DNA of 64,000 bases. It comes from Escherichia coli (GTDB lineage: Bacteria; Pseudomonadota; Gammaproteobacteria; Enterobacterales; Enterobacteriaceae). Of this stretch, positions 48,001 to 51,000 are shown one piece after another (the first letter of the stretch is position 1; the number at the start of each line of letters is the position of its first letter). Location of the stretch: NCBI RefSeq assembly GCF_003991155.1, contig NZ_CP031293.1; one strand, written 5' to 3'. Position numbers: made by a program.

Positions 48001-51000
48001 AAAGCGACGCAGGTCACCGTCGGTGATAATGCCCGCTAGCCCACCTTCTGCGTCTTCTACCATCACCATTCCCTGGCATCCGCTGGTGATACGTTGAATC
48101 ACGGTTTTAAATGACGCATCCAGCTGTACCGCAGGAACATCATGCAGCATGACATCAGCAACGCGGGTCAGCAGGCGACGACCTAATGAACCGCCCGGGT
48201 GATAGCGCGCAAAATCATTCGGCATAAATTTGCGTTGGTGGATCATGGCAATCGCCAGCGCATCGCCGATCGCCATCGTCAGCGTGGTAGACGTTGTTGG
48301 TGCAAGGTTATTCGGGCAGGTTTCATTCGCCATGTGGAGTTCCAGCACGGCATCAGCATTTTTCGCCAGCGTGGAATTTCCATTATTGGTCATGGCGATA
48401 ATTCGGTTGCCGAAATTTTTCAGTGAAGGAACTAGCTTGAGGATTTCATCCGTTTCACCGCTGGCAGAAATAAGGATCAGAAGATCGTAAGGCGTAATCA
48501 TGCCCAGATCGCCATGGAAAGCTTCTGCAGGATGAATAAAGAAACTAGGCGTACCCGTAGAGGCCAGCGTCGCTGACATTTTACGACCGACATGCCCTGA
48601 TTTACCCATTCCCGAAAGAATAACGTGCCCTTTACAGTTCATTATCAAATTAAGGACACGCTGGTACTGCCCGGAATCCAGTTGTTTAGACAAGTTTTGT
48701 AATGCTGCGCCTTGTTCTGCCAGAGTCTGGCGAACAGAGGTAATTAGATATGGATCGATAGTACTGCTCTGGTCATCAGGTAAATGTCTTTCAGACATAT
48801 CAGCTCCTTTGCACGGAAATAATGCCACAGTCACAACAAACCCGAACCCACTATAATTTATTTATGCTAAATCAATGGGTTGTAACAAAATTTTTAATGA
48901 ATATAAAACCATGGTCAGTCCATGCTTATATGCAGGACTTATCACCTTCTTATTAAGTCGCAATGTCTCATGGAGGTGCGAAGATGCTGCAATATTACAG
49001 GCGAGAAGGGGAACCAAATTTTGCCCACCTATTTAACACACCCCTACATTATGAACAAGGAATTTAGGATTTTTATCATTTATTAAAATGTTTCTCACTT
49101 GACTATTAAGACCAAAAACAATTTATCAATTGATTATTTCCTCGTAAAAAAAGAACGTATGACCATGTTATTAATAAATAAAACACGTAAATAATGGTGA
49201 TGTTGTTTTGTGATTAACTATTTAAAGCGGCATAATAAACAGGTTGACAATTTCTATGTAAAGAAGAGGAAAATAATAAAATTTTAGCGGTGACTATTGA
49301 ATGATATGATAGTTGTGATGTTGATTATTTCTGGTAATGAATGCGGAATTAAATCTGGCCGGATTGTATTTTTGCTATATCTGTTTTTCAGGAGATTATT
49401 ATTAAATAGAAAAATAACAGTGGTGATTATCTCCGGTTGAGCTGGAGTCACGTATGCCAGCGAGTGCTTTCTTCCGGGCCTTCCTTCACTTCAGATAAAG
49501 AGCCTATGGAAAAGAGGCAATCATCAGGCTCTTTTTGAGTCATATGCGCCGATAATCAACTGTCTTGAACGTAAAAATTATGGAGCAACATGATGCTACG
49601 ATTCATTTCACTCTTCGTTCTTTCTGAGCATTGCGTTCAGGATGGTCAGCAATTTACGCATACAGTCAACCAGCGCCACTTTTTTGGTTTTTCCGGCTGC
49701 TGACAGATGCATGTAAAATGCCTTTATCACCGGATTAAACCAGGTTACCACAAGCGCTGCCATGTGCAGGGCTGCTCTTGCCTCCGTACGCGCACTGGCG
49801 TCGTTCGGCCAGCAGATATGTGTGGGATTACAGGGATGTTATGTGAACTGAACTGTGTTTTGTTAACGGGGGATGTTTATTGATGATTCGGGAGTGTTTA
49901 AGACCTGATGGCGTTATGCTCCCAAGTTTATTTTATATAAAGATCCAAAAGCAAAAACCCGCCTTGTGGGCGGGTTCTTTAGAATAGTGGTGCCGGACTC
50001 GGAATCGAAGAATGCTTCTATCATGTTGATATTAGTTTATTTTGTTTGGTTTGGTGAAATATGTACCCTCTTTTGTACCCGCAGTCCCTTTTGATATCGA
50101 AAGGGAATCAAACTCGGGGTCAGGCTGAGAGCACAGAAGGAAAGTGCCTGGCTATTATATCGTTAATTCTGTCAATCAGCTCCAGCCTTTTGAAAGTGAT
50201 GTGTGCAGATCCCTTCTTAAAGTATTTAATGATGAACATCTCATCTTCATAGCGTCCTTTACCCTGAACGGACTGTATGTGGTCATCCAGATTAATGGTG
50301 ATATTCCCTCGGTTGTCGGGGATCGGTTTACCGCTGAGCAGATGCAACATTCTTTCCAGGTCAGCCAGGCGATCTGCCTGCATTCCACTGATAAGATGAA
50401 ATCCCCACTGGTCCCATCTCACCAGATTGTTGACGATAATTTTACTGCCAAATTTACAGGGTGAGTTGGTTTTGTAATCCCAGCTCAGCCCTTTGAAGAC
50501 GTTGATCACTCCCCGTTCAAACACTTCATCTTTGTTCTGGTGCAGTTGTTCAAATGTGCTCAGAATGTTCGCTTCGCTGATTTCCGGAAAATTATCATAT
50601 TCCAGTGACCTGGACCTGACTGAGGTGGAGCAGATAACGTCCGTATTCTCGTTGACCACTTCCGGACGGGAGACTGTGATTTCAGACATAATCGATATTC
50701 CTTTTTGCAGATAAATGAAAACGCCAGCCGTGTTCAGGCTGGCGTCAGTGGAATGAAGTCTGGTGAGTGAGATGATGAGTGAGACTCACCGGTTCTGGTG
50801 CTGAAGCTGCAGTTGGCGCAGGGTACGGATATCCTCTCTGGCCTGTTCGATACAGGGCAACAGTGCTGCTGAATCCGTTTTATCCTCATTGTTGTCAAAG
50901 ATAATTCCCGATTCGCAGTCGATATTGTCCTGCAGCCACGCAATCAGAATATCCAGTGCGGTTTCCGTGGTTAATGATTTCATGTTGTTCCTGGTTACCA

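Follow-up and report, generated by a model that had tools for sequence, protein, structure and literature searches.

The systems closest to the locus described here are insertion sequences of the IS110 type and genomic islands at the tRNA gene pheV. IS621 of Escherichia coli and ISCro4 exemplify bridge-RNA-guided recombinases (PDB 8wt6, 9t56), and ISEc32 is an IS110-like element of E. coli plasmids. Unnamed IS110-subgroup elements of Enterobacteriaceae are represented by WP_065883986.1 (K. pneumoniae pIncF NZ_CP018886.1), WP_000056792.1 (E. coli pCFSAN004179G) and an element of the E. coli chromosome that neighbours a 'putative zinc ribbon protein' gene. As for islands, pheV-associated pathogenicity islands with repeats of the tRNA 3' end are exemplified by PAI-pheV of CFT073. 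A paper of 2025 mentions a transposase, c3684 in CFT073, between a TA module and capsule region 1, and treats TA and kps as one co-acquired island (PMC12488582). The capsule region 1 promoter PR1-1 lies 225 bp upstream of kpsF, with a transcription start at about position 49023 of our DNA (PMC5738388), and the mapped H-NS/SlyA/IHF sites reach only -224 (PMC8960920). Standard PR1 reporter constructs begin at -646, and cis elements beyond -646 are one speculation of their authors (Jia et al. 2017, PMC5738388).

We analysed a 64-kb stretch of E. coli DNA (hereafter the window) in which the capsule genes follow a CP4-like module. Read along the minus strand, the order is the CP4-like module, an attR, the native pheV terminator, ~150 bp of orphan DNA, a piece of an IS110-family element, 759 bp and kpsF (Table 1). 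This piece is almost certainly the inert fossil of an IS110-subgroup insertion sequence.

Table 1. Features of the IS110 remnant and of the DNA around it (window positions)
Feature	Position	Strand	Basis
IS110-subgroup element remnant: last ~70 transposase codons and 21-nt right-end non-coding terminus	49557-49790	-	DNA and protein homology
Premature stop TGA; TGG (Trp) in full-length relatives	49608-49610	-	alignments; common to 7/7 strains compared
Second in-frame nonsense codon TAG; TAC (Tyr) in relatives	49596-49598	-	alignments
Ancestral transposase stop TAA	49578-49580	-	aligns with the stop of 4/4 full-length relatives
Right-end (RE) terminus ...TTTTTACGTTCAAGACAGTTG, complete to the last base	49557-49577	-	comparison with four full-length copies
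Orphan DNA from the deletion breakpoint to the K-12-like DNA; leftmost part of the kps segment	49791-49940	.	genome and plasmid searches
Native pheV downstream DNA, including intrinsic terminator 49979-49953	49941-49987	-	96% identity to K-12; hairpin scan
22-bp copy of the tRNA-Phe (pheV) 3' end; direct repeat / attR	49988-50009	-	K-12 comparison
kpsF, first gene of capsule region 1	47815-48798	-	PGAP annotation
DUF4942 gene, last of the CP4-like module	50120-50689

Identity and extent of the remnant

The initial annotation had read a transposase-like peptide (...WFNPVIKAFYMHLSAAGKTKKVALVDCMRKLLTILNAMLRKNEE) from the minus strand, and this peptide, ending in ...AMLRKNEE, is indeed encoded there. 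Its attribution to a truncated IS110-family transposase was borne out by database searches, with similarity far beyond chance. The intact 322-aa transposase of a Klebsiella plasmid aligns with the window over residues 251-322 at 75% identity (tblastn, E=2e-28), and a full-length copy of the element matches the remnant at 87% over 221 bp (blastn, E=2e-76). The NCBIfam model NF033542, 'IS110 family RNA-guided transposase', is matched at positions 281-342 of 343 only (E=7e-9). These E-values rule out a fortuitous resemblance to transposases. The match to Pfam PF02371 (Transposase_20) covers the last 27 positions of the model (60-86 of 87) and falls below the cutoff (E=0.015), because only the tail of the domain is left. 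The piece therefore has the C-terminal Tnp / Transposase_20 homology of the IS110 family, in the form of a derived remnant.

Full-length relatives were found on an E. coli chromosome (with an internal stop), on two E. coli IncF plasmids and on a K. pneumoniae IncF plasmid. They share a layout of ~1.17 kb, with a conserved left end of ~180 nt, a gene of 321-323 codons and 21 nt past its stop. The protein of the K. pneumoniae plasmid can be aligned over its full length with the IS621 recombinase structure 8wt6 (E=5e-32), and with ISCro4 as well. The DNA identity of the remnant to the four copies is 85-87% over 49557-49777/49779, and homology to three GTDB loci likewise ends at 49557 and at 49777-49779. 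At the protein level, homology extends to 49790 according to the PGAP pseudogene or to 49796 by tblastn. Alignment to full-length elements thus places the truncation point within 49777-49796, a range that reflects similarity fading gradually over ~19 nt.

These boundaries modify the first description of the gene fragment. Its box, 49608-49815, overlaps the remnant, but it measures 208 nt, one base over whole codons, and reaches beyond the start of homology. Its estimate of ~68 terminal codons is close to the ~70 ancestral codons retained, although these are shifted by ~30 nt towards kpsF relative to the box. The TGA taken as the end of the gene is premature, as the ancestral frame continues through the TAG to the TAA and the element through to its terminus. 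Nor does the fragment lack a start codon: in an open frame that starts past a stop at 49841-49839, an ATG at 49763 opens a 51-aa ORF (49608-49763, minus strand) ended by the TGA nonsense mutation. This ORF is shorter than the usual ORF cutoff.

The right terminus, ...TTCAAGACAGTTG, is intact and ends at 49557. In all four full-length copies CAGTTG is followed by CT and then by unrelated flanks, and on their left side conservation begins directly after CT. The presence of CT at both ends of the relatives fits the core-dinucleotide arrangement that IS621-type elements reportedly have, as set out by Durrant et al. and Hiraizumi et al. in 2024. In the window, CAGTTG is followed by AT, not CT, and then by unique DNA; the original flank may have been altered.

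The C-terminal ~70 codons and the right terminus amount to ~20% of the element, and the remainder is missing. As the initial annotation had proposed, there is no upstream catalytic domain: homology begins at residue ~251 of 322, and the N-terminal DEDD (RuvC-like) domain has no match upstream or elsewhere in the window. Searches of the whole 64 kb with an intact relative and with the whole element found no other IS110 piece, and blastn with the whole element likewise recovered nothing here for the left end (~180 nt) conserved among the relatives. The catalytic serine, equivalent to S241 of IS621, is also absent. When a relative is aligned to structure 8wt6, the remnant starts ~20 residues past the serine motif (..NRDSG..), and the window DNA at the place of this motif is unrelated. 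What is left can no longer be mobilised and does not suffice to encode a recombinase.

The left end of the relatives may correspond to a guide RNA, as in other members of the family. An Rfam scan of the intact relative detected no bridge-RNA model, and folding of its left end was uninformative (z=-1.7). An Rfam scan of 48800-50200 gave only sub-threshold chance matches (P9, Trp leader), which are due to the pheV terminator hairpin. As for the subgroup, assignment to IS1111 was considered and rejected: the ancestral stop (49578) is a mere 21 nt away from the terminus (49557), and the long non-coding region of the relatives is 5' of the gene. Members of the IS1111 subgroup have a long non-coding region, or guide RNA, 3' of the gene, along with subterminal inverted repeats. 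The short 3' and long 5' non-coding ends therefore indicate the IS110 subgroup. Altogether, the sequence comparisons support the reading of a 5'-truncated transposase gene of an IS110-subgroup element that kept its right end.

No full-length copy more than 90% identical to the remnant was found in complete E. coli genomes, PLSDB plasmids or 100,044 species-representative genomes. The exact right-end junction had no match in the latter set, and a scan of it with a conserved 32-mer of the gene retrieved three relatives only, at ~85-87%. Since no copy is closer than ~87%, the parent element is not among the relatives found.

In ~820 E. coli records, one related full-length element, 87% identical to the remnant, occupies a single fixed chromosomal site, beside the 'putative zinc ribbon protein' gene. 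Both chromosomal copies inspected (L002 3001-4170 and L006 2501-3670) carry the same internal stop, and this element also looks dead.

Databases already contain the remnant under several names. In E. coli Combat2C1, as in each of the other records listed, the PGAP label of the identical DNA is 'IS110 family transposase; incomplete; missing N-terminus' (window 49608-49790), and the 51-aa ORF has been deposited as 'transposase' on at least 1,000 contigs. The UniRef cluster of this ORF is named 'Protein encoding reversible inactivation of extracellular polysaccharide production', a label that misleads when it stands beside capsule genes. It has probably been propagated from IS492 of Pseudoalteromonas, which belongs to the IS110 family. 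The remnant itself is thus known, as a RefSeq-annotated pseudogene of public genomes and from its mention in the literature (PMC12488582).

The pheV junction and the capsule segment

The DNA at 50009-49941 matches K-12 with 96% identity, over the last 23 nt of pheV and the terminator downstream. Its beginning, TTCGATTCCGAGTCCGGCACCA, equals those 23 nt minus one G, and a scan finds a terminator-like hairpin in the pheV downstream DNA. The window has no tRNA gene, and the 22 bp copied from the pheV 3' end are therefore attR, the distal direct repeat of a pheV-integrated island. A direct repeat of a tRNA 3' end followed by native chromosomal sequence is what one finds here. The last genes of the island are the CP4-like set, YeeU/CbtA, DUF5983, DUF957 and DUF4942. 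With attR and the native pheV terminator between the modules, the island must have arrived by site-specific integration at the tRNA gene.

In K-12, 101 bp separate the pheV-downstream homology from yghD, and the window has 16.1 kb instead (49940 to 33826). This segment carries kpsFEDUCS, region 2 and kpsMT, and K-12 homology resumes exactly at the yghD stop codon. The remnant lies ~150-163 bp inside it, in the gap of ~1.3 kb that separates the CP4-like module from kpsF. The island module next to attR varies among strains, with DUF4942 in the window, a frameshifted AbiEii and DUF6088 in ATCC 25922 and 20595, and RelE/ParD in NCTC86. In strains with other modules, similarity to the window stops at 50005-50045, while the remnant and kpsF are constant. 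The remnant therefore travels with kps and not with the CP4-like module.

Elsewhere in the window, at 24323-32324, ~8 kb with genes for type II secretion, gspL/K/J/I/H among them, are absent from K-12 between yghE and yghF. This difference appears to correspond to the known K-12 deletion in the T2SS cluster.

Original chromosomal DNA lies between the island and the kps segment, which were brought together by two independent insertions flanking the 3' end of pheV with its terminator. The K-12-like DNA between them argues against the single co-acquisition of TA and kps (PMC12488582).

Distribution and decay among E. coli genomes

At least 80% of the interval 49440-49840, which includes both boundaries, is covered in 1,629 of 5,426 complete E. 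coli genomes. The orphan stretch 49778-49945 is found in 1,631 of these genomes, as a single copy in each and always with the remnant. kpsF/PR1 is present in 1,705, and the remnant accompanies it in ~1,630 of them (~96%). The breakpoints and both nonsense codons are identical in the seven diverse strains compared, namely the window, MS15236, ATCC 25922, C, BL21(DE3), NCTC86 and 20595. Among these strains, 2.6 sites per 100 bp vary in the remnant, as many as in the non-coding segments on its flanks, and its six variable sites amount to four amino-acid changes and two silent ones in the aligned sequences. These data point to one old, fixed event that decays neutrally.

Partial matches were considered as candidates for a longer version of the element or for an empty site. 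One is an IS66 insertion with a deletion (H58), others are unrelated IS110 remnants at different loci (H62, H64, H181-185), and two correspond to an IS600 insertion (H124) and an IS1-mediated deletion (H125). All the exceptions examined result from secondary IS66, IS1, IS600 or IS21 events, and none is ancestral.

A search of plasmids with 49791-49940 and 49248-49556, the two orphan non-coding segments on either flank of the remnant, yielded only the anomalous record NZ_LR890315.1 and one partial match on an E. coli plasmid. NZ_LR890315.1, deposited as 'Klebsiella oxytoca plasmid 4' (29 kb, circular), carries an E. coli-type CP4-like module, the remnant (100% at the amino-acid level) and kpsFEDU at ~98-100%. 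The record represents either a piece of E. coli chromosome that was mis-binned under Klebsiella, or else a real circle that has been excised or mobilised.

Proposed history and comparison with known systems

We propose that an ancestor of ~1.17 kb, coding for a DEDD/serine recombinase of ~322 aa homologous to that of IS621 and bearing in its ~180-nt left end what in this family would be a guide (bridge) RNA, inserted in the orientation of kpsF, with its right end ~530 bp upstream of PR1-1. A later deletion or rearrangement would have removed the left ~950 bp, and with them all that they held, from the left end and any guide RNA to the DEDD domain and the catalytic serine. Decay would then have introduced the two nonsense codons and changed the flanking core from CT to AT. 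The remnant now evolves at the rate of the neighbouring non-coding DNA and is inherited within the group 2 kps segment.

Alternatively, an IS110 element might have helped to deliver the whole kps segment beside pheV, for instance as the edge of a mobile unit, and have been truncated in that event. Its proximity to the left edge of the 16-kb segment, only ~150 bp away, would suit such a role, as would the identical junctions in ~96% of the kpsF-bearing genomes, which date it to the time when group 2 kps spread within E. coli or earlier. However, the other edge of kps and the rest of the window harbour no second IS110 piece, ~150 bp of unrelated unique DNA intervene between the remnant and the edge of the segment, and the junction is found in no representative genome outside E. 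coli. Furthermore, we know of no mechanism by which an IS110 element could mobilise 16 kb of flanking DNA. We regard this alternative as unlikely.

It is tempting to speculate that the remnant and the ~150 bp of orphan DNA represent the edge of the first kps delivery vehicle, or a distal cis element 'beyond -646' that modulates PR1-1 on the chromosome. Either would provide a handle on the origin of kps or on regulation by chromosomal context, yet we give this idea very little credence.

The initial annotation had suggested that IS-mediated rearrangement helped to join the capsule genes to the CP4-like module, in which case the remnant would mark the joint. Although it does lie in the short gap between the DUF4942 gene and kpsF, the actual joint is a scar of site-specific integration, made up of the pheV attR and 47 bp of the native DNA downstream of pheV, terminator included and colinear with K-12. 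From there it is another ~150 bp into kps-specific DNA before the remnant is reached. Across strains, moreover, differing island modules abut the same arrangement of attR, remnant and kpsF. To our knowledge, an IS110-family element inserts as a single unit, at a target that its guide specifies, and composite transposons of this family are not known. Colinearity with K-12 largely refutes recombination by this element as the cause of the joint, an explanation that we consider highly improbable.

The remnant is located at about -534 to -767 relative to PR1-1. The IHF site of this promoter region, TTACAACCCATTG, is found at 48885-48873. A consensus scan detected no promoter-like site within 49557-49790, and inspection revealed no convincing Shine-Dalgarno sequence ahead of the ATG at 49763. 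Co-option of the remnant, either as DNA that regulates the kps PR1 promoter region in cis from a distance or through translation of the 51-aa peptide, would agree with this location and with the ATG-initiated ORF, but it is scarcely believable in view of mapped regulator sites that stop at -224 (PMC8960920), variation equal to that of flanking non-coding DNA with mostly non-synonymous coding changes between strains, the lack of promoter-like and Shine-Dalgarno signals, and an ORF that ends at a nonsense mutation.

A neutrally decaying fossil of the right end of an IS110-subgroup element thus remains our preferred reading. Such a decayed fragment is of little importance in itself, and annotation pipelines already flag it. 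Its modest value is that of a marker: breakpoints and nonsense codons are fixed in ~96% of the complete E. coli genomes with kpsF, which shows that one ancestral arrangement gave rise to the DNA upstream of region 1. The pheV repeat and terminator nearby show that the capsule segment and the pheV island are separate acquisitions, contrary to some published descriptions. A word of caution also applies to PR1 reporter constructs, as their start at -646 falls inside the remnant and they thus stop within IS-derived DNA.

With respect to known systems, the CP4-like module ends at a 22-bp repeat as in the PAI-pheV of CFT073. This likeness concerns the neighbouring junction, since the remnant is outside the repeat, in the kps segment. 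ISEc32 belongs to the same family as the remnant, with ~73% DNA identity over 173 bp, and is clearly a different element, as other copies reach 85-87%. In IS621 and ISCro4, the remnant corresponds to the C-terminal Tnp helices past the catalytic serine. Its homology to IS621 is distant only, and with neither DEDD domain, serine nor guide RNA it cannot work like IS621. The closest likeness is to the unnamed IS110-subgroup elements of Enterobacteriaceae, with 85-87% DNA and 75-84% protein identity over the retained part, and with the same terminus and the same C-terminal tail, ...KNEEW(N/D)ESYHHVAP. Those elements are ~1.17 kb long, and the remnant is the equivalent of their last ~20%, with two nonsense codons.
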